NCBI GenBank assembly: GCA_003141675.1
Contig: PLND01000053.1
Coordinates: 6,153-60,134 of the forward strand
Direction of reading: 5' to 3'
DNA: 53,982 bases
Source: Anaerolineae bacterium
GTDB taxonomy: Bacteria > Chloroflexota > Anaerolineae > Anaerolineales > RBG-16-64-43
Under the pieces are notes generated by a model, which made no database searches, was not told the DNA's origin, and saw only the letters and a program-made list of their open reading frames with translations. Every line of letters begins with the position of its first letter. The first letter of the stretch is position 1. Below, piece after piece: positions 12,595 to 27,122 of this stretch. A program made the position numbers and the translations under genes.

Positions 12595-14025
12595 TCATGG
12601 CTTCCCGGGGGGCGACCAAATGAGAGTCCAAGGGCCAGGCACGGAAACACCAACATCGCTGTCCAGTTCGACGGTTAATTTTCCAATTGGTATATGTCCA
12701 TTCTTATAGGTAACAAACACATCATCTGGGTCCACTATGCAGTCTTCATTATCAAGTCCTTCTAAAATGCAGAGACTAAAATCGTGGCTATCATCGGTAA
12801 GTCGATGATTTGTAATAAAGGTATAGCCCGTCTTTGTCATTGTTACTTCCTCGATCACATATTCAACCCCGAGCAAAATGACATGTTGATTGATTTTCCA
12901 TGTTTGACCAATTTGTGGATTTGCGCCGGTATCGAACTGGAAAGTGGCGCTTTCGCTTGTATGAACACCTACATTATCCAACCGCAGGGTCAGCGGGAAG
13001 ATGATGGGTTTTTCGATTTCGTAGGCCCATTGAAACGAGTTATTCCATTGATCCGCTGGCCGGATGTCGGTCCGTGGCCAAGCCGTAATCCTATTTCCTT
13101 TTGCATCCGTAAAGATAAAAGGATCAACTACAGGATAATCTTTGCCTACCCCACAACATTGACCAGGCAAATCACCCGCGTTGGTGAAATTCCCAATCAA
13201 GAGATATGAATCTTCATATTCGATAACTCTATCCAGATAGAGACCCGTACCATTTGGTACGCGGGTTGGCATGGGTGGCCAGTTGGTCGGATATTCATCG
13301 GTAATTTCAAGAGTCGGGCTGGCGGTTGTTTTGAAGGTTGGGCCGGATTTCTGGGCGGTAACCCCGATTTCCACGCCGGGGGTAATAAAATTCTTGGGAG
13401 CAGGGATGAGCGAGAAGGGGACTTCCAAATTGAACGTCGGTCCAAATTTGTTCGTGGGATCGACGTTGGGGAAGACCAACACAACTTTCTGCGTATCCGA
13501 AGGTAAAGGCGGAAATGTACTACTTGTATTAATACGACCGCTCTCGCTTGACCATCCCATTCCGCCGCCAGTGGAGGAAGTTAGTTCTTTGCCGTTTCCC
13601 AAACGCAGGACGGGAATGGGGAAGAAATCACCGGGACCAAATGGGAAGCCATCGAAATGATACTGTATCACCGTGCGGGTTGCATCCGCTATGACTGTAT
13701 CCACCACAATGATAACCCCTCCATGCTGCACGCGGACCGGCTCCTTTAGGACACGAACAGGTGCGCTCAAATCCACGAGACCCACGCCGGGGAGGTAGCC
13801 CATGGTTTTTCCGATCACATACGCCACGCCGGTTAACAACGCCAGGGCGAGAACCAAAACAAGAATCAACAAAGCGGGTCTTGAACGCAAGGTTTGTAGG
13901 AAGGTCTTCTTTCTTCCACGAGCGGAATCGGGGATAAGGTTAACGAGGCGCGGCAGCAGATTGATGTCGCTCGGAATGTAGTCGGCTGCAACCGCATCCA
14001 GAACATCGTGATACGTCCTGTTCAT
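12595..14025 (-). CDS. Membrane-anchored putative anti-sigma factor (DUF4179-like), single TM with a large extracytoplasmic part
   Basis: Short N-terminal cytoplasmic region, one TM, then GYLPGVGLV; start overlaps the ECF sigma stop; paralogous to 46653-48992. Confidence 0.65.
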   Translation of the reverse strand: MNRTYHDVLDAVAADYIPSDINLLPRLVNLIPDSARGRKKTFLQTLRSRPALLILVLVLALALLTGVAYVIGKTMGYLPGVGLVDLSAPVRVLKEPVRVQHGGVIIVVDTVIADATRTVIQYHFDGFPFGPGDFFPIPVLRLGNGKELTSSTGGGMGWSSESGRINTSSTFPPLPSDTQKVVLVFPNVDPTNKFGPTFNLEVPFSLIPAPKNFITPGVEIGVTAQKSGPTFKTTASPTLEITDEYPTNWPPMPTRVPNGTGLYLDRVIEYEDSYLLIGNFTNAGDLPGQCCGVGKDYPVVDPFIFTDAKGNRITAWPRTDIRPADQWNNSFQWAYEIEKPIIFPLTLRLDNVGVHTSESATFQFDTGANPQIGQTWKINQHVILLGVEYVIEEVTMTKTGYTFITNHRLTDDSHDFSLCILEGLDNEDCIVDPDDVFVTYKNGHIPIGKLTVELDSDVGVSVPGPWTLIWSPPGKP

Positions 14026-14567
14026 TTCGCGTTCCTTTCCCCGAGCAAACTCCGCAAACGGTTACGGGCGGCGTTCAATAACCATTTGACGGTACCCGGC
14101 GCGGCGCCGAGCGTGCGCGCCATTTCCCCTTCACTCATTCCAAGATAATAACGATCGATAATTACAGCACGTTGTCTCGGCGAGAGTTTCGATATAGCGG
14201 AGAGAATTTCCTTTCGGAGATGTGCAAACTCCACCTGTGATTCGACCGTGGCAGCACGATCGAGCAGCGATTCCACTTCGTCCAGATCATCCAACGGAAT
14301 CGATCGGTTTTCGCGTCGCACCAGATGCAACGCCATATTGACCACGCTACGCATGAGATACGGCTCGAACGGGCGCGTCTCGTCGAAGTGTTGGATGCCT
14401 TCTATCATTCGAAGGAACGTCTCTTGAACGACATCCTGTGCGGTGGTTTCATCATGCATGATAAGGAATGCCACTCGAGCCGCTTTGACCTGATAACGCA
14501 CGACGAGCGGTTCTAACCCGCTGGTATCCCTGCGTTTTAAGCGGCGGATGGCCTGCAGATCATCCAT
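14022..14567 (-). CDS. ECF-type RNA polymerase sigma-70 factor
   Basis: AQDVVQETFL, FEPYLMRSVVN, LSPRQR and GTVKWLLNAAR motifs; GGAGG RBS. Confidence 0.9.
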   Translation of the reverse strand: MDDLQAIRRLKRRDTSGLEPLVVRYQVKAARVAFLIMHDETTAQDVVQETFLRMIEGIQHFDETRPFEPYLMRSVVNMALHLVRRENRSIPLDDLDEVESLLDRAATVESQVEFAHLRKEILSAISKLSPRQRAVIIDRYYLGMSEGEMARTLGAAPGTVKWLLNAARNRLRSLLGERNAK

Positions 14568-14850: not shown

Positions 14851-14885
14851 CGGGAGAGATATTGCCGAGGGCAATATCTCTCCCG
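14851..14885. other. Perfect 16-bp inverted repeat hairpin downstream of the Ubl operon
   Basis: CGGGAGAGATATTGCC-GAG-GGCAATATCTCTCCCG; no clear U-tract after the stem on either strand. Confidence 0.5.
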
Positions 14886-15037: not shown

Positions 15038-16195
15038 TCATTTTAATTTAATTCGACTCGCCTTTGGCTCTTGCAGCCGGATCCTGGGAGCGGTCGATTT
15101 GTATTGGCTTTCACCCATGCTCTTGGCCGGCACCAGGGTCAGGATTTTTTGCGCTCCGGCTGGCGCGAAGAGCAGCACGATCAATGCGGCCAGCAGGCCG
15201 AAGAACAGCGGCCAGGAAGACGACGGGGAAACCGCCGCCTCCGGAACCAGGCCGCCCGGGTTGTAGGCTCCCTTGGCGGGCACGGCGAGCGTGGAATCCG
15301 AAAGTTTGACGCTCAATGCGCGGTTGAGACCGTCCCGCAACGAAGCAGGGGAAACGTAAGTGATCACGTACTCGCTCTGCAGCGCGCGCCCATACTGTTC
15401 GTACAAATTGCGCAAAGCGGTGGCGTCGTTGACGTATCCATAACTCCCGCCGGCGCGCTCGGCCAAGCTCTTCAGCGACGGTTCGTCGATACCGGCGAGG
15501 GAACTCGTTTTCTGGGTGGAATCGCCGAGGCCGATCGTGGAAATGGAGAGTCCCGGCGGGCCGATCGCGGCGACGATGCCGTCGGCGGTTTGCTTGCTGC
15601 GGTTGTCCATCCCGTCGGTGAGGACGATGATCGCCTTGCGGCCGGAGACGTCCTTGAGCAGGTCGGTTCCCTGGATCAGGGCGTCGTACATCGCCGTATC
15701 GCTCCCGGCGATCAACCCTTGGATCGCCAACTTTAATTTGTCATGATCGGCCGTCACCGGCTGCACATAGGTAATGCGCGTATTAAAGGAAAGGAGGCCG
15801 GCTTCGTCCCCGGTGCGCATCTGATCGACGTAGGCGGAGGCGGCCGATTTGGCCGAGGTCAGTTTATTGTCGTAGTTCATGCTTGCGGAAATATCCACCA
15901 CGAGCAGAGTGGTCAGGGGCACGCTGTTCCCGATACCGGTGACATCGCTGGGAGTGATCCGCTTGCTGTTTTCATAGAGTTGAATGGTATCGAGCTTGAC
16001 CGGGGCGGGTTCGCCTGAACTCTCGGTCACCGAGATGTACACCTTTACCTTCGGAAAAGCGGAAGTATCGACCTGGGTGATGTGCACCTGCAACTGGCCC
16101 GAAGCCTGGGCATGAACCGGCGCGGCGCGTAGCCCCAGGGCTGCCAGGACGAGGAACGGAAGGAAAAATCTGATTTGCGTTCTAAACCGGTCCAT
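15038..16195 (-). CDS. Secreted, membrane-anchored von Willebrand factor A (VWA) domain protein
   Basis: Signal peptide (PVHAQA), MIDAS DISAS...T...LTDG, C-terminal TM and basic tail ending RIRL...RIKLK. Confidence 0.88.
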   Translation of the reverse strand: MDRFRTQIRFFLPFLVLAALGLRAAPVHAQASGQLQVHITQVDTSAFPKVKVYISVTESSGEPAPVKLDTIQLYENSKRITPSDVTGIGNSVPLTTLLVVDISASMNYDNKLTSAKSAASAYVDQMRTGDEAGLLSFNTRITYVQPVTADHDKLKLAIQGLIAGSDTAMYDALIQGTDLLKDVSGRKAIIVLTDGMDNRSKQTADGIVAAIGPPGLSISTIGLGDSTQKTSSLAGIDEPSLKSLAERAGGSYGYVNDATALRNLYEQYGRALQSEYVITYVSPASLRDGLNRALSVKLSDSTLAVPAKGAYNPGGLVPEAAVSPSSSWPLFFGLLAALIVLLFAPAGAQKILTLVPAKSMGESQYKSTAPRIRLQEPKASRIKLK

Positions 16196-16198
16196 GCT

Positions 16199-17056
16199 TC
16201 ACCTCTTTTCGTGATAGACGAGTTCCGTATTTCCCAGCCGCAGGATTTGACGGTTGGCAAGCTGCGCCAATTCCACCCGCCGTTTGTTGACGAATGTTCC
16301 CGTCTTGCTCATATCCTTGATGGTGAAATGCGAGCCGTTACCCGTGAGCATCGCGTGTTGCGGGGCGATATCCGGGTCGGGGAAGACAATGTCGGCTTTG
16401 AGCGCATCGCTGCCGAGGATGACGCTCGGGCCCTTGGCTTTGAGGAATTTATCCAGGATGAACTCGGCTCCGCGCAGCTTGCCGCTGGCCACTTCGATCC
16501 AGGCCCGCGATAGCAGCACGACGATCAGCGCGATGAGCGCTCCGACCGACCCTCCCAGTAGCACCAAGCCCAGCGCCTTTCCCAGGAGCGGATTCTTCAG
16601 CGCGTCGCGGGCGGCTTCCAAAAAGCCTCCACCCACGATCCCGCCGAGCAAGCCTCCCAGCGCGCCCTTCCACATCTGGCTCCCGCCGGTGATCCCTTCG
16701 GCCAGGCCGATCAACCCGCCGAACACTCCCCATCCCAGGGCGCGGCCGAAAAAGCCCGCCCCCAGAATCTGAAACAGGAATTCCCCGAGCGGAAGGCCGA
16801 TGGCGCCGGCTATAAGGCCAAGGCCCGCGGCGACCGCTCCGGCCCGCAATGCGCGGGCGAAGTTCAGCGTGAAGAGGCCTTCGGTGACTCCGATGAGCAA
16901 TCCAATGCTAAGGCCGATCAGCGCGCCTACGAACACTTCGCTCAGGTAGACGCTGCCGGTGAAGGATAATCCCGCCAGGTTGCTGATCTGCCATCCCAAA
17001 AGCCCCCCGATCGCGCCCAGGATTCCATAGTTGTAAGTCCGCATTCCTCTACTCAT
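16199..17056 (-). CDS. Gly-rich multi-pass membrane protein with C-terminal FHA-like domain
   Basis: About 6 Gly-rich TM helices, then LGS...DIAPQHA...IKDMSKTGTFVN...ILRLG (FHA pattern). Confidence 0.8.
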   Translation of the reverse strand: MSRGMRTYNYGILGAIGGLLGWQISNLAGLSFTGSVYLSEVFVGALIGLSIGLLIGVTEGLFTLNFARALRAGAVAAGLGLIAGAIGLPLGEFLFQILGAGFFGRALGWGVFGGLIGLAEGITGGSQMWKGALGGLLGGIVGGGFLEAARDALKNPLLGKALGLVLLGGSVGALIALIVVLLSRAWIEVASGKLRGAEFILDKFLKAKGPSVILGSDALKADIVFPDPDIAPQHAMLTGNGSHFTIKDMSKTGTFVNKRRVELAQLANRQILRLGNTELVYHEKR

Positions 17057-17771
17057 GGTTCTCCGCTCCTTCCGTCAATCCCTCTGGTTTTTCCAGTTCG
17101 AGGTTCTTCCAATACACAAGGCTCTTTCCGGAATTCCCGACGATCTCCAGAAATCCATGGTAGCGGTGATGGTCGAGGCTCCCGTCTTCTTCCCGCACGA
17201 AGAACCCGCCGATCTGGGTGTGCGGTTCGATGACCAGCGCCACCTGCCATGGTTCCGGAAAAAAATGTTGATGCAGCCAAAGGTCGTAATCCGAAAGGAA
17301 AACGCCCATTCTTGGGTGGGTGTGGAACCACCCGACCATGCGCTTTTCCGGATAGCGCGTCTCCTGCTCGTCGTGCAGTGCCACCAACGTATCCTGGGTG
17401 AAGGTGAGGAAAGCGCTTCCGTGCCGGGTGAACCGGGCGGGGAGCACGGCTTCCGCCACGATGAATTGCTCCCCGCTCGGATTGTCGATCCGCCATTGGC
17501 CGATAAGCGCTCCGCCCACTTCGTTGTCCATATCCTGTCCGGCCAGGGAACAGATCTGGACAAACGCGGGCTGGGTGAGGAACACCGACACCGCGGGTTT
17601 GCTCCCGTCCCGGTCGAACGGCGAGTTCCACCGCCGGACCTTCGATCGCGGGATGCGCGAGGGGCGCGGGTCCGGAGTCTCGGGCGGGCCGAGCCGGACG
17701 CGCGAAGATTCCGTTTTGGGGAATTCTTCGCCCTGTGGGAGTTCTGCATCGACCATCGGCATGACAGTCAA
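17049..17771 (-). CDS. JAB/MPN+ (Mov34) metallo-isopeptidase (putative deubiquitinase / Ubl-processing enzyme)
   Basis: EVGGALIG ... GWFHTHPRMGVFLSDYD matches the JAMM motif E-xn-HxH-x7-S-x2-D; exact start codon uncertain. Confidence 0.9.
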   Translation of the reverse strand: MTVMPMVDAELPQGEEFPKTESSRVRLGPPETPDPRPSRIPRSKVRRWNSPFDRDGSKPAVSVFLTQPAFVQICSLAGQDMDNEVGGALIGQWRIDNPSGEQFIVAEAVLPARFTRHGSAFLTFTQDTLVALHDEQETRYPEKRMVGWFHTHPRMGVFLSDYDLWLHQHFFPEPWQVALVIEPHTQIGGFFVREEDGSLDHHRYHGFLEIVGNSGKSLVYWKNLELEKPEGLTEGAENHE

Positions 17772-17774
17772 CCC

Positions 17775-18041
17775 TTAGCCGGCGGTGACGTCGGCGGTGA
17801 GGATCAGGCGGTCGCCGGTGGGAACCGACGCGGAGGAAAGGGTTTCCTCCTCCTGCAATTCGCGCCCCAGCGCCTTGCTGTCGATGCGATAGCTCATCGG
17901 TCGGCCGTCGGGACCGGTAGTCGGCAGCTGCAGCGAGGTGGTCAATTCCGGAATGAGTTCCTTGACGACCACGTCGTTCGGAACCTCCGCGGTGCGGGAG
18001 CCGCCGGATGGTAATACTACGGTAACGGGAACGTCAGCCAT
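17775..18041 (-). CDS. Ubiquitin-like beta-grasp protein (EsaB/YukD-like) ending in a free C-terminal Gly
   Basis: 88 aa; ETLSSASVPTGDRLIL resembles the ubiquitin TL..YNI...TLHL strand; ends TAG-stop; AAGGAG RBS. Confidence 0.85.
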   Translation of the reverse strand: MADVPVTVVLPSGGSRTAEVPNDVVVKELIPELTTSLQLPTTGPDGRPMSYRIDSKALGRELQEEETLSSASVPTGDRLILTADVTAG

Positions 18042-18056
18042 TTTCTCGTCTCCTTA

Positions 18057-18317
18057 TTACGAATTGCGGATGGTGCGCGGGTTTGGGTCCTGCTTGTCTT
18101 GCGGATACGCGCTCAATTGGTCCTCGTTCTTTGTATACGGAAGAAACGGAGAAGAGCCGAAGTCACGGAAAAATTTATTGTTCTCCTTGCCCCATTTATT
18201 TCCAATCAAGGAGTTGGAGTTATCCAAAAGGAATTCTCGGTGAGTTCCGTTATTTTCGGTGCCCCCGGCCCGACCCATGCCGGGGCGGGCTTCCGTGTAC
18301 TGGTTTTTACTAGACAT
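18057..18317 (-). CDS. Small hypothetical protein within the Ubl operon
   Basis: 86 aa; strong AAGGAGG RBS; fills the gap between the Ubl-E2 and Ubl genes; no recognisable domain. Confidence 0.6.
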   Translation of the reverse strand: MSSKNQYTEARPGMGRAGGTENNGTHREFLLDNSNSLIGNKWGKENNKFFRDFGSSPFLPYTKNEDQLSAYPQDKQDPNPRTIRNS

Positions 18318-18336
18318 TCCTGCCTCCTTGTCCTTC

Positions 18337-19173
18337 CTACTTCAACCGGATGCGCGGGGCGGGGTTTTTTTTCAGTTTGACCCGTCCCGGCCGCAACAGT
18401 TCGCGCTCGTCCACCGGAAACGCGTGCGGATGGTCGGCCCGGTAGGCCCGGCTCCAGCGCGCGGCATCCGGATCCCAGGGGAAGGGCGGCTTGGTGGGAT
18501 CGTCGTGGAAGTTCTTGTACTGCACCATTTCGCCCAGCATGATCACCAGTCGGTCCAGCGAACGGCTGGCGGTCCACCAGGCCACGTCGATGCAAACTGT
18601 TTTGTTGAGATGGTGAATATTCGGATGCCAGATCGGGGTCAGCCATTTCAGCCCGGGCCAGCGCTGCGGATACTGGTTGTGCAGGTAGATTTCCACCTGA
18701 TGATGGCTGGAATATTTGGGCCGCCCCAGTTTGTCGATTGCGGCGATTCCCTTACATCGGTACGTGACGATGTACCGTTCCGGCGCGGGGGATCCCCTGG
18801 AATCCACAGCCTCGAAAGTAATCAGGCTGCTCTGGGCGGCCAGTTCGCGCATCAACTCGTAATCCGCGATCAACCGGCGCACGCGCGGGCTTTGGGAGAG
18901 CGCCATGCCGCCGGCGGTGATGTCCGCCGTCAGGATCAAGCGGTCGCCGGAGGGAATCTTGGCCGAGGCGAGGGTTTCGTCCTCGCGCAGCTCGCGGCCC
19001 AGCGCCTTGCTGTCCATGCGGTATCCCATCGGCCGACCATCGGGTCCGACGGTGGGCAGTTTGAGAAGCGACGTGAGCTCCGCCATCAGGTCGCGCACCG
19101 GCGCGTCGTCGGGTACGTCGGCGGTGCGGGCGCCGCCGCTGGGCAAAACGATGGTCACGGATAGATCAGCCAT
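18337..19173 (-). CDS. Ubl-E2 (ubiquitin-conjugating, UBC-fold) fusion protein
   Basis: Residues 1-88 are a Ubl (63/88 identical to 17775-18041 by manual alignment) ending TAG-G; then RVRRL..DY, YPQRWP and IWHPNI...VCID (HPN motif plus catalytic Cys). Confidence 0.9.
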   Translation of the reverse strand: MADLSVTIVLPSGGARTADVPDDAPVRDLMAELTSLLKLPTVGPDGRPMGYRMDSKALGRELREDETLASAKIPSGDRLILTADITAGGMALSQSPRVRRLIADYELMRELAAQSSLITFEAVDSRGSPAPERYIVTYRCKGIAAIDKLGRPKYSSHHQVEIYLHNQYPQRWPGLKWLTPIWHPNIHHLNKTVCIDVAWWTASRSLDRLVIMLGEMVQYKNFHDDPTKPPFPWDPDAARWSRAYRADHPHAFPVDERELLRPGRVKLKKNPAPRIRLK

Positions 19174-19235: not shown

Positions 19236-19970
19236 TCAGGTGTGATAATGCGGAACCTGGCACATTCCGGTGATATCCCAGCAATCCTTGTGGTGGCGGG
19301 TGTGGCAGATCGGGCACACGACCACTCCGCGCGGATCCCTCGCCTCGATCGGTTGCAGGCAGTAGGGGCATTTGTATTTCTCGGCCCCGGTCAGGCGGAT
19401 CTCGGCATCGGGCCGCGCCCTTTGGAAGAACCGCAGTACGCCGCCGAAGCGATTGCGGGATGGGCGCGCGTCCTTTGCCGGCGCAGTGGCTTTAATTTTC
19501 TTTTCCAGTGCGGCGGATGGCTGCGGTTCCCCCAGAACCTCTCCGGCTGGTGCGGGGGCGGCGCGTTTCCTCCAGGCAACGAGGGCGAGCGCGGATGTGG
19601 CGGCGCCGATCGCCATCAATCCCAACGCCCCCCAATCCGGACGTCTCTCCGCGGGGAGGGTGGGATCGGCGCCGACCAGTCCCTGGGTCAGCCAACCCAT
19701 GATCAACAAGCTCAGCAATGTGGCGGTGATCGCGGCGGTTAATCGCAGCGGAAACGAAAACCGGCGAAAGAAAAGACGGGAGACGAACCCCAGGAAGATG
19801 CCTGCTCCCGCAGCGGCCGCGATTGCATAAACCCACGGCAAGATTGTGTCGTTGACCACCCCGGCAACCGCGAACCCCGCCGCCGTGAAACAAGCCAGCA
19901 GCGCCAGAAGTTCCAATCGGAACAGCAGCAGAAACAATCTCGGTGAGGAGTAAGGCTGGGAACCGCTCAC
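19236..19970 (-). CDS. Membrane protein with C-terminal prokaryotic RING-like zinc finger (putative E3)
   Basis: About 4 TM helices; C-terminal CPYC-x14-CPIC-x3-HH-x2-CW-x5-C-x3-H fits the Prok-RING_1-type pattern; GTG start overlaps the E1 stop (GTGA). Confidence 0.8.
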   Translation of the reverse strand: MSGSQPYSSPRLFLLLFRLELLALLACFTAAGFAVAGVVNDTILPWVYAIAAAAGAGIFLGFVSRLFFRRFSFPLRLTAAITATLLSLLIMGWLTQGLVGADPTLPAERRPDWGALGLMAIGAATSALALVAWRKRAAPAPAGEVLGEPQPSAALEKKIKATAPAKDARPSRNRFGGVLRFFQRARPDAEIRLTGAEKYKCPYCLQPIEARDPRGVVVCPICHTRHHKDCWDITGMCQVPHYHT

Positions 19971-21640
19971 GGCACACTCTCGTCCGGTGCCGTTTTTTCG
20001 TCGTGTAGAACGATCCGTCCGGCCGCCGGGCCCTTGTCTCCCTCATCCGGTTCCACGGCTTCCCCCAGGGAGATGCGTTCACGCAGCGGGATGGCAGAAA
20101 CGGCTTCCGGATTTTCGAAATGCCGGAAGTGCAGCGTCTCGGAAAGATCGCCGGTTAATTCGTAGAACCGAAACTCGCTTGAGTTGCGGGCGCGCAGAAT
20201 GTGAAGGGGGGGCACGCCCACGCTGGAAAGCGTCCGCTCCAGGAAGGTCTCGTCGCCGCGGATCTCGTGTGTCAGCTCGATTTCGCGCAGCAGGCCGCAG
20301 GACGGACAGTGGCCGGCTTCGAAGGTCACCGCTTCGAGCGGACGCAAGACCTCCTCGCGGGTGTGGCAACTCGGGCAGGTGAGAGAGAGGATCAATTCCT
20401 GATCCAGTTCGATCACGGCGTCGGACCCCAGATCCTGGCGCACCAGGCGCAACATCTCGGAGAGGGTTGTGCGGGAAGCACGCGCCGGAAGCTCGATCAC
20501 CTCGCCGTAGACCCAGTGGCTCTCGCAATCCTCGCGCGGGACATAGGCGCTGGTGTGCATCTCGTTGGTCAATCCGTTGAAATGCACAACCTTGCCTGCT
20601 TCCACCGGCATCCCGTGGATCAGCTTGAGCGCTTCCTGAGCCTGCATGCCGCCGATGATCGACGCGATCGTGGGAGTGGTCGGGACTTTTCCCAGGAGGA
20701 TGTTTTGCCGAGCCAGCAGCGGGCAGGAATAGCGCAGGGAAAGATCGCGCCGCGCCTGCTCGGTGAGCGTGCATTCGAAACAGGCTCCGCGGCCGGGGAC
20801 GAACGTGCGCACCAGTCCCAGCAACTCCTGGATGGCGCCGTCGACCCACGGCTTGTTCATCCAATAGCAGAAGCGGTTCAACGCCAGCCGGGCTTCGCGG
20901 TTATCGAGGCATCCGATCACGGCGTCCATGCGCCGGATGATTCCCAGGCCCAGCTGGGTGGTCACGTCCCCATCGAGGTATTGGACGTGCACATGTGGAT
21001 TGAGGCTCCTGGCGCGCGAGGCGACAACCTGGGCTTTGCTGCGTTTGGTATCCCCCTCGCGGAAGAGCACCGAGCGACTGAGGTTGGCCGCCTCGACCGT
21101 ATCGAAATCGACGATAAAAAGGTGTCCGATACCCATCAGGGCGAGGTTCTTGATCACTTCGTTGCCGAGCGCGCCCGCGCCCACCACCATCACATTGGCG
21201 TCCCGGACCTTGTCCTTCTCCCACCAGGAAATGAATTCGAAAGTTCCCAGCCGGTCCGTTTGCAGATTGGGAACGTGGAGCGGTTTTTCCGAGCTAGCGG
21301 GGAGGCGGTGCGGGCCGCTCGGGGTTTCTCCGCCGGGCGGGGTTTTTTCCGCGCCAAGCTGCCGGTAGGCGCCGGCCAGGTCGCGGGCCGCCGCGAGATT
21401 GTCGGCGTCCAGTTTGCACGCGAACCATCCCACGCCGGCCCGGGCTTCGATCAGACCGTTTTCTTCCATAGCCTTGAGCGCCTCGCGTAGCGTGGCGCGG
21501 CTGATATCCAGTTGCTGGATCAACTCCCTTTCGGAGGGGAGTTGTTCACCGGCCTTAATCGATCCATCGAGCACAGAGCCCGACAGACGCCCGGCGACAG
21601 CCTGTGATAATGACACGTGTCCGATCGGTAATATCTTCAT
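19967..21640 (-). CDS. GntR-family HTH fused to ThiF/E1 ubiquitin-activating enzyme with Zn-ribbon C-terminus
   Basis: N-terminal GEQLPSERELIQQLDISRATLREAL (GntR wHTH); GAGALG, DFDTVEAANLSR, CLDNREAR, CFEC, candidate catalytic YSCP, two CPSC; start taken as ATG 21640. Confidence 0.92.
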   Translation of the reverse strand: MKILPIGHVSLSQAVAGRLSGSVLDGSIKAGEQLPSERELIQQLDISRATLREALKAMEENGLIEARAGVGWFACKLDADNLAAARDLAGAYRQLGAEKTPPGGETPSGPHRLPASSEKPLHVPNLQTDRLGTFEFISWWEKDKVRDANVMVVGAGALGNEVIKNLALMGIGHLFIVDFDTVEAANLSRSVLFREGDTKRSKAQVVASRARSLNPHVHVQYLDGDVTTQLGLGIIRRMDAVIGCLDNREARLALNRFCYWMNKPWVDGAIQELLGLVRTFVPGRGACFECTLTEQARRDLSLRYSCPLLARQNILLGKVPTTPTIASIIGGMQAQEALKLIHGMPVEAGKVVHFNGLTNEMHTSAYVPREDCESHWVYGEVIELPARASRTTLSEMLRLVRQDLGSDAVIELDQELILSLTCPSCHTREEVLRPLEAVTFEAGHCPSCGLLREIELTHEIRGDETFLERTLSSVGVPPLHILRARNSSEFRFYELTGDLSETLHFRHFENPEAVSAIPLRERISLGEAVEPDEGDKGPAAGRIVLHDEKTAPDESVP

Positions 21641-21648
21641 AGGTTGGC

Positions 21649-21675
21649 TGGTATGCTGGTCAGACCAGTATACCA
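21649..21675. promoter_or_regulatory. FadR/GntR-type palindromic operator
   Basis: TGGTATGCTGGTCAGACCAGTATACCA, a near-perfect 27-bp palindrome with core TGGTCTGACCA (minus strand), 9 nt upstream of the GntR-E1 ATG. Confidence 0.75.
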
Positions 21676-21678
21676 ACA

Positions 21679-21706
21679 ATTCTAAAAGGTTTTTAAGGCT
21701 TGTCAA
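21679..21706 (-). promoter_or_regulatory. Sigma70-type promoter of the Ubl operon
   Basis: TTGACA (21706-21701), 16-nt spacer, TAGAAT (21684-21679). Confidence 0.7.
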
Positions 21707-24601: not shown

Positions 24602-24645
24602 AAAAAACCGCAGGGGCGGATCGCGATCCGCCCCTGCGGTTTTTT
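24602..24645. terminator. Bidirectional terminator built from a REP-like palindrome
   Basis: Perfect 44-bp palindrome AAAAAACCGCAGGGGCGGATCGCGATCCGCCCCTGCGGTTTTTT between convergent genes. Confidence 0.75.
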
Positions 24646-26369: not shown

Positions 26370-27047
26370 ATGACCTACGATAAAATCCTGCGCCACTTGA
26401 AAGCGAATGCCAATCCCGCCGGGTTGGAAGGGATGGCCAAGTTTGGAATCCTGACAGAGAACGCGTTGGGGTTGTCGATGCCGTTCTTGCGTCAGACTGC
26501 CAAATCCGCGGGCATCGATCATGCGCTGGCGCTTCGGCTCTGGCAGAGCGGAATCCACGAAGCGCGCATCCTCGCTGCCCTCGTCGACGATCCGGCGCAA
26601 GTGACTTCGGCCCAAATGGAAGATTGGGTGAACGATTTCGATTCGTGGGACGTCTGCGATCAGGTTTGTGGAAATCTCTTCGACCGGACCCGTCTTGGCC
26701 GGCGCAAGGCGGCGGCGTGGACCAGGCGGAAACCGGAGTTTATCCGGCGGGCGGGTTTCGCCTTGATGGCGGCCCTGGCCTGGCACGACAAAGAGGCGGG
26801 CGATGAACTGTTCCTCGGATATCTGCCGCTCATCGAAAAGTATGCATCCGACGAACGGAATTTTGTAAAGAAGGCGGTCAACTGGGCGTTGCGGAACATC
26901 GGCAAACGCAACCGCACATTGAATCACGCCGCCGTCGCCTGCGCCCGCCGCATTGCCCGGCAAGAATCCCGCGCCGCGCACTGGGTGGCCGCGGACGCGA
27001 TCCGGGAATTGACGGATCCAAAAACGGTTGCGAGGATTAAATCGTAG
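26370..27047 (+). CDS. alkD: DNA alkylation repair protein (AlkD family)
   Basis: LWQSGIHEAR, FDSWDVCD and DERNFVKKAVNWALR motifs. Confidence 0.88.
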   Translation: MTYDKILRHLKANANPAGLEGMAKFGILTENALGLSMPFLRQTAKSAGIDHALALRLWQSGIHEARILAALVDDPAQVTSAQMEDWVNDFDSWDVCDQVCGNLFDRTRLGRRKAAAWTRRKPEFIRRAGFALMAALAWHDKEAGDELFLGYLPLIEKYASDERNFVKKAVNWALRNIGKRNRTLNHAAVACARRIARQESRAAHWVAADAIRELTDPKTVARIKS

Positions 27048-27122
27048 GGGCCGGTCGCGACCGGCCCCTACGGACGATTTACGAATGACGAATGAAGGGG
27101 TGCGTCGCCGACGCGCCCATAC
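27043..27122. repeat. GTAG-type REP-like palindromes
   Basis: CGTAGGGGCCGGTCGCGACCGGCCCCTACG plus a degenerate copy at 27094-27122; related copies at 24610 and 48995. Confidence 0.7.

Follow-up and report, generated by a model that had tools for sequence, protein, structure and literature searches.

A GntR-type DNA-binding domain on a ubiquitin-like activating enzyme: a putative autorepressor of an Anaerolineales E1-E2-RING operon

The stretch of DNA analyzed in this study (the window) comprises 53,982 nucleotides (nt) of contig PLND01000053.1 from an Anaerolineae bacterium (assembly GCA_003141675.1). It includes a seven-gene Anaerolineales operon, which encodes on one strand an E1-type activating enzyme, a membrane protein with a RING domain, a fusion of a ubiquitin-like protein (Ubl) to an E2, a free Ubl, a JAB peptidase, a membrane protein with an FHA domain and a protein with a von Willebrand factor A (vWA) domain. 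The E1 carries a GntR domain at its N-terminus and is therefore called GntR-E1 here; a palindromic candidate operator lies directly upstream of its gene. This gene, encoding 557 amino acids (aa) and a stop codon, is located at positions 19967-21640 on the reverse strand, as are all genes and promoter elements given below. A mechanical call of the open reading frame (ORF) had yielded 579 aa from 19967 to 21706 with a TTG start, and the same limits were given in the initial annotation. This TTG at 21706 is a spurious start: the −35 hexamer TTGACA begins with it. As it is placed in a promoter box and as homologues begin at the aligned methionine, the ATG at 21640 is considered the real start, and 66 nt of promoter had thus been counted as coding. 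Twenty-one of 29 homologues have the same start (15 of them with MKI), and the other eight are annotated with 1 to 17 additional residues.

The initial annotation had described the protein as a GntR winged helix-turn-helix joined by a Pro/Gly linker to a full E1, which replaces the usual effector domain. Pfam supports this layout, with GntR (PF00392) at residues 11-73 (21422-21610) and ThiF (PF00899, E 1.5e-56) at residues 139-372 (20525-21226). The GntR match reached an E-value of 6.2e-17 and 61.4 bits at a cut-off of 27 in Pfam, and 65.5 bits in the genome scan. All further N-terminal Pfam matches are other DNA-binding helix-turn-helix models, and none of them is of a peptide-clamp type. The closest solved winged helix is the N-terminal domain of PdhR (5kvr, E 3.1e-12), other solved relatives being FadR-family regulators and NanR. 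In an alignment of 30 sequences (GntR-E1 and 29 homologues, 68-93% identity) the DNA-reading helix and the wing are invariant, including residues S47, R48, T50, L51, R52, V70, G71 and W72. These matches place the winged helix with those of FadR and PdhR.

The available part of PMC4494728 names the GntR subfamilies FadR/FCD, HutC/UTRA, MocR (aminotransferase), YtrA, AraR and PlmA. None of these types is found in the C-terminal part of GntR-E1, where ThiF is the sole Pfam domain. Going by its domains, GntR-E1 is therefore a member of the GntR family with respect to DNA binding and belongs to none of the six named subfamilies with respect to its C-terminal part. Both parts are connected by a linker (residues 94-140, 21221-21361), which is rich in Pro, Gly, Ala and Ser and, up to about residue 108, variable in sequence and predicted to be disordered, with values of 27-42 in the predicted local distance difference test (pLDDT). 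A conserved segment follows (GPxRLP...PNLxTDRxGTFEFISWW), of which residues 124-137 fall into the predicted dimer interface described below.

The ThiF/E1 domain keeps the motif GAGALGN, D246, C287xxC290, C306 and C372/H375 in 30 of 30 sequences. C306 (codon at 20723-20725, within RYSCP) is the candidate thioester cysteine and is identical to the cysteine in YSCP that had been proposed as catalytic; it may be equivalent to the cysteine of MoeB, ThiF and UBA5, if the spacing after the CxxC motif is taken as a guide. Its neighborhood (residues 291-324) was modelled at a pLDDT below 50. The best solved sequence relatives of the domain are the active adenylation domains of UBA7, UBA1 and SAE2, which rank ahead of ThiF and MoeB (E 1e-27 to 1e-22 for UBA7, UBA1, SAE2 and ThiF); MccB and PaaA are also among the solved relatives. 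The E1 part is thus probably a complete and active Ubl-activating enzyme, as far as can be judged from its residues. A further domain at the C-terminus (residues ~380-500, 20141-20503) contains the pairs C422xxC425 and C445xxC448 and was modelled at a pLDDT of 76-94 per block of ten residues, mostly above 84. Foldseek returned UBA3 (chain 2nvu_B) as top match of the model over 442 aligned columns, with a template modelling (TM) score of only 0.30 and on the basis of a mediocre model. Canonical E1s recruit their E2 through a C-terminal ubiquitin-fold domain, and the domain in GntR-E1 is a candidate for this role.

Single-domain E1s are homodimers that associate via the adenylation domain. A homodimer model of residues 1-380 of GntR-E1 reached a score of 0.80, compared to 0.00 for the best control, and exhibited a symmetric interface within residues 124-363; the agreement of contacts between runs was at least 65% and the pLDDT of the partner at least 74. 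Among proteins of solved structure, 20 of 30 that are pairs of one chain reach the mark for this score, as does one of 23 that are single chains, yet such a pass may reflect only the likeness to solved E1 dimers and is not a proof of dimerization.

Directly upstream of the E1 start codon, a promoter of the form TTGACA-N16-TAGAAT had been noticed before, and it is indeed present (21706-21679), matching the consensus at 11 of 12 positions. Its −35 hexamer TTGACA (21701-21706) has a −35-like counterpart in the equivalent position of all 81 sequences, and its −10 hexamer TAGAAT (21679-21684) follows after a spacer of 16 nt and ends 17 nt before the dyad of the operator. Between positions 14000 and 22600 eight promoter-like sites were found, compared to a mean of 3.3 in shuffled sequences, and the one in front of GntR-E1 is the best of them. 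The 27-bp palindrome, which was claimed to cover the predicted transcription start, was also recovered at 21649-21675: in TGGTATACTGGTCTGACCAGCATACCA (read from 21675 to 21649) 12 of 13 arm pairs are complementary. It was identified by a dedicated script, whereas the general repeat search of the window did not list it. The invariant core TGGTCTGACCA occupies positions 21657-21667 and the right outer arm ATACCA positions 21649-21654. With the core lying at about +3 to +14 of the expected transcript, the operator is in the position of a repressor site.

Palindromes scoring as well as this one or better occur nine times in the 54-kb window, compared to 0.2 expected from block shuffles, and several of the remaining ones are long G+C-rich hairpins. 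Those at 24604-24643 (20 of 20 pairs), 27043-27072 (15 of 15) and 14851-14885 (16 of 17) are perfect or nearly perfect, some with flanking runs of A or T, and look like bidirectional terminators.

For a comparison among fused relatives, 80 loci were kept out of 192 stretches that encode a relative of GntR-E1 (contigs from one genome per species). The core TGGTCTGACCA was found with at most two mismatches in all 80 loci. Within 200 nt upstream of E1, 66 of the 80 loci contain it without any mismatch, 11 with a single mismatch and one with two. The loci L010 and L011 contain a fully palindromic core with one mismatch, which lies behind its own promoter (TTGACT-16-TATAAT) about 200 nt before the start codon. 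The same layout is found in L012, which is one of the 11 loci with a single mismatch. The operator thus stays with the promoter rather than with the start codon. The sequence TGGTCNGACCA occurs 72 times in 981,430 nt of fused loci, and 70 of these occurrences lie no more than 200 nt upstream of E1. A sigma-70-type promoter matching the consensus at 10 or more of 12 positions precedes the operator in 72 of 81 sequences, the distance between the end of the −10 box and the dyad is 15-17 nt in 77 of 81, and in all 81 the site follows the −10 box and spans the expected start. Operator variants among the loci include GACCG and GACTA.

Many of the related loci (L020-L024, L031, L034, L046, L059, L070 and others) exhibit a second conserved motif, roughly (T)AGTACnnnnTTnCCTA, which abuts the −35 box about 5-25 nt upstream. 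It is absent from the promoter of the window itself and from those of the nearest relatives L001-L008. Given its place, this motif may be a site for another factor.

The TGGT-N3-ACCA core, found immediately behind the −10 box in all 80 loci, is of the GT-Nx-AC palindromic operator type. Sites of the FadR subfamily consist, in the available text of PMC4494728, of TKGT and ACMA boxes in which GT and AC are typically separated by 3 nt, in agreement with the initial annotation, which had assigned the core to this operator type. Going by the motif, the operator is of a type that fits a winged helix of the FadR/PdhR kind. Moreover, the operator appears to be unique in its genome. When a weight matrix made from 77 sites was scanned over the genome of the window (2.82 Mb, 99.7% complete), the E1 operator was the only site above 10 bits, with 40.2 bits. 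The only other exact core, on contig C9, was rejected as a member of the regulon, being located inside an ORF of 425 aa and lacking the flanks. Apart from GntR-E1, only one GntR domain above the Pfam cut-off is encoded in this genome, in a frame of 139 aa.

A search with the E1 part alone against 1.84 billion representatives, in which the fused family collapses into one cluster, gave as next relatives proteins of about 380-420 aa with at most 54% identity. As these are short and match from their own residue 10-30 onward, the nearest sister E1s are unfused. Loci of such unfused E1s (n = 80; Promineifilaceae, Ardenticatenaceae and others) carry E1, Ubl/E2 and JAB genes. In the flanks retrieved (up to 6 kb), none of these 80 loci includes a GntR domain near the E1, and a core-like operator upstream of E1 was found in none of the 80 either. 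Core-like matches in the 913,078 nt of these loci amount to five, three within the E1 coding sequence and two far off. The presence of the operator in 80 of 80 fused and 0 of 80 unfused loci suggests that fusion and operator have been inherited together.

The fusion itself might be suspected of being an assembly artefact, an objection raised along with the initial annotation. It fails against several lines of data. PF00392 and PF00899 are present together in 119 of the best 120 homologue clusters listed; the one cluster without both domains has 427 aa and lies on a 1.7-kb contig. All 80 kept loci, which are from Anaerolineales or Chloroflexota metagenome-assembled genomes, match GntR-E1 from residue 1-10 onward. 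In an even sample of Anaerolineales, the fusion occurs in 50 of 201 genomes and 19 of 84 genera, with a patchy distribution by family (15 of 18, 16 of 19, 6 of 19, 5 of 19 and many at 0). Furthermore, contigs from four wetland RNA libraries match the locus at 99% or more, and two of these, X5 (21149-21549) and X10 (21135-21516), begin within the winged helix, cross the linker and reach into the E1 domain. As RNA libraries can contain DNA, these contigs reveal the junction in independent data and are no proof of transcription. Both domains of the fusion are already annotated automatically in the source databases. No report of a GntR-ThiF/E1 fusion was found in the literature searched, which did not include Burroughs et al. 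2009 and 2011, the papers likeliest to list an E1 with a winged helix-turn-helix.

It appears very probable from these comparisons that GntR-E1 represses its own operon. Such autorepression had been proposed from the single locus, and it gains support from an operator that is present in 80 of 80 fused loci, placed after the −10 box, unique in the genome and absent from 80 of 80 unfused loci. GntR-E1 would then be an enzyme-repressor with two functions, whose ThiF/E1 part forms a homodimer and thereby presents two winged helices of the FadR/PdhR type on flexible linkers of about 45 residues. These winged helices would bind the operator centered on TGGTCTGACCA, a few bases past the −10 box and over the expected transcription start, and would block RNA polymerase, by which E1 and the six genes behind it would be repressed. 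The E1 domain would stand in for the effector or oligomerization domain (FCD, UTRA, aminotransferase) of ordinary GntR regulators, and the regulon would consist of this one operon. It is inferred that the GntR domain binds DNA, that it does so as a dimer and that the outcome is repression and not activation.

Several observations weigh against this picture or complicate it. The transcription start is a predicted position only. The left arm of the operator includes TGgTATACT (21667-21675), which resembles an extended −10 element and is preceded by TTAAAA at a distance of 18 nt; this makes it uncertain which promoter is actually used. From the sequence it is possible that the locus has two overlapping promoters, in which case the operator would cover the second −10 box. 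The RNA-library contigs X5 and X6 cover DNA upstream of the operator and X8 and X10 do not; as these contigs cannot place the start, their cover was not used. A further point is the shape of the operator. In most relatives the conserved block is asymmetric (TGGTCTGACCA-CC-ATACCA), with the right outer arm being as invariant as the core. Of 72 distinct sites, only 23 have a left outer arm with complementarity at six or more of eight positions, and this arm is sometimes displaced by one base. The simple symmetric picture of the initial annotation does not cover this asymmetry. One symmetric dimer does not account for such an asymmetric block. It would be compatible with three to four half-sites of the TGGTmTG type, if two dimers or flexibly linked helices read them. 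Finally, the monomer model of GntR-E1 is mediocre (mean pLDDT 63.7) and does not give the geometry on DNA, and the winged helices are outside the confident part of the predicted dimer interface.

If GntR-E1 is an autorepressor, the question arises whether its enzymatic state plays a part. The initial annotation had suggested that the charging state of the E1 (ATP, Ubl adenylate/thioester, dimerization) may control transcription. The E1 might act as sensor and enzyme at once and leave the operator when Ubl, Ubl-adenylate or the E1~Ubl thioester occupies the active site, or when Ubl is attached to the winged helix; this is a tentative proposal, which we regard as possible rather than probable. 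The strongest rival is plain negative autoregulation without control by a ligand, in which the E1 domain is a dimerization scaffold and the level of the operon is simply capped. We give this explanation a chance not far below even, and it is at least as likely as control by the charging state. Every point in favor of an enzyme-repressor fits it equally well, and nothing in the data connects catalysis with DNA binding. In addition, the long and disordered linker argues against a tight allosteric coupling. On the other hand, the C-terminal domains of ordinary GntR regulators sense something, according to the available part of PMC4494728. The fully conserved enzyme residues indicate that the E1 is not a dead scaffold, and the segment between the domains (residues 109-137) is conserved and situated at the predicted dimer interface.

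The remaining alternatives fare much worse than autorepression with or without a sensor. Some members of the GntR family are activators, and GntR-E1 could in principle activate its own promoter. This appears improbable, since in all 81 sequences the site is placed past the −10 box and over the expected start, and since the promoter is already near consensus; a promoter with at least 10 of 12 matches in 72 of 81 sequences would not need an activator.

N-terminal winged helices of E1-like enzymes of the MccB/PaaA type bind peptides, and both MccB and PaaA are among the solved relatives of the E1 domain. The winged helix of GntR-E1 might accordingly be a clamp for the Ubl substrate, with the palindrome being bound by another factor. 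This idea is still harder to uphold, however, in view of the score of the GntR DNA-binding model (61.4 bits), of the DNA-binding domains of PdhR, FadR and NanR as best solved relatives and of the FadR-type operator being tied to the fusion (80 of 80 fused and 0 of 80 unfused loci), and also because the genome offers just one further GntR domain above the cut-off as another factor.

Least credible of all is a role of the palindrome as an RNA hairpin of the 5′ leader for stability or translation: although the leader of the window would fold at −16.5 kcal/mol (z −3.1), the expected start falls within the left arm, the element of L010-L012 adjoins the promoter with the start codon about 200 nt off, and relatives do not preserve the outer stem, whose right arm is invariant and whose left arm varies without compensatory pairs, so that only an inner stem of 5 bp around a single central base remains. 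A reading as RNA element was consequently dropped, Rfam having returned no family and one chance-level microRNA match in a coding region.

The genes behind GntR-E1 are largely shared, in unchanged order, by the related loci, where their presence was counted by tblastn; several of the misses are short contigs that end in or just after E1. The membrane protein with a C-terminal Prok-RING_1 domain (19236-19970), the start of which overlaps the E1 stop, the fusion of a YukD-like Ubl with an E2 (UQ_con, HPN...C; 18337-19173) and the free Ubl of 88 aa, which ends in Ala-Gly (17775-18041; 72-100% identity), were each found in 77 of 80 loci. They are followed by the JAB/JAMM peptidase (17049-17771; 76 of 80), the membrane FHA-domain protein (16199-17056; 72 of 80) and the vWA-domain protein (15038-16195; 70 of 80). 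In L013 and L014 the membrane RING gene precedes E1, with the promoter-operator between the two genes.

Of the two Ubl copies, the free one ends with ...TAG and thus with a single C-terminal Gly, and the other one continues as ...TAGG-MALS into the E2. In Bub, a JAB peptidase cleaves a Ubl-E2 pre-protein (BubAB), as stated in the available part of PMC11601596, and by analogy the Ubl::E2 fusion may represent a pro-form. Its gene is separated from that of the free Ubl by about 295 nt of non-coding DNA with a lower G+C content (18042-18336; 0.525), which RNA-library contigs bridge. A gap of 51 to about 390 nt is found at this place in most related loci; a search of 18042-18336 against Rfam gave no family.

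Downstream of the operon and on the same strand, positions 12595-14567 encode an extracytoplasmic function (ECF) sigma factor of 181 aa and an overlapping protein of 476 aa without Pfam match. As this pair follows the operon in only one of 80 loci, it is probably not part of it. The operon was also considered as a known defence system, and it is not filed as such: the matches to the PADLOC library are generic ones (E1-E2, BilD, JAB) at superfamily level.

With FadR-subfamily repressors (FadR, PdhR, LldR, NanR) GntR-E1 shares a winged helix at the N-terminus, in which the same helix and wing are conserved, as well as TGGT/ACCA operator boxes 3 nt apart (PMC4494728, available part). Unlike these, it lacks FCD and has a ThiF/E1 enzyme attached via a disordered linker of about 45 residues. 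The same source, as far as available, reports TGGTAT/ATACCA-like repeats for NanR (FadR subfamily), NagQ (HutC) and GabR (MocR), and these resemble the outer TGGTAT/ATACCA units of the GntR-E1 operator. MocR regulators such as GabR and PdxR likewise combine a GntR winged helix, a long linker and a whole enzyme-fold domain that provides dimerization (PMC4494728, in the part available). Their domain has the fold of a class I aminotransferase and is usually not catalytic as a pathway enzyme. In contrast, the E1 of GntR-E1 retains every catalytic residue and is encoded in the very operon of the pathway that it would regulate.

Another system to compare is BirA, an adenylate-forming enzyme with an N-terminal winged helix, which represses the operon of its own pathway and is driven into dimerization and DNA binding by its adenylate. 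GntR-E1 resembles BirA and other ‘trigger enzymes' in uniting a pathway enzyme and a DNA-binding domain for the genes of the same pathway in one polypeptide, although the regulation is inferred in the present case. It differs in its dimer, which is probably constitutive, and in its fold and DNA-binding family. Bacterial Ubl-E1-E2-JAB-RING operons have reportedly been described by Burroughs, Iyer and Aravind in 2011. Like these, the Ub/E1/E2/small-RING/Rpn11 operon of Caldiarchaeum subterraneum, as outlined in the abstract of PMC5654768, shares with the operon of GntR-E1 a complete eukaryote-like cascade in one operon; that abstract does not mention a DNA-binding domain on the E1. Transcriptional repression of bacterial E1/E2/Ubl/JAB operons is also found for the ubiquitination-like operons of Bub, Bil and the cyclic oligonucleotide-based antiphage signaling system (CBASS). 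Their regulators are, in the available parts of PMC11601596 and PMC13373217, the products of separate genes, namely CapW, CapH+CapP and CapK+CapS, which act as repressors of Bub operons, with CapK+CapS also serving Bil and CBASS. In the operon of GntR-E1, unlike in those, the putative regulator is part of the E1 itself.

What sets the present locus apart from those operons is a Ubl-activating enzyme that itself carries a putative DNA reader and has a dedicated, strongly conserved operator. The lineage-wide spread of the fusion (50 of 201 genomes) together with the contigs in wetland RNA libraries suggests that the operon is a system in use and not a relic. For the GntR family, GntR-E1 adds a new type of C-terminal domain, and it is a possible new case of gene expression being set by the catalytic state of an enzyme. 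If the E1 does act as a sensor, the whole Ubl cascade would be transcribed according to Ubl flux or demand, which would be a BirA-like feedback in a ubiquitin-type system, and GntR-E1 would represent a seventh GntR subfamily with an E1 as ‘effector domain'. For bacteria that possess a complete eukaryote-like E1-E2-RING cascade, the operon offers a simple test case of how such a cascade may be controlled.

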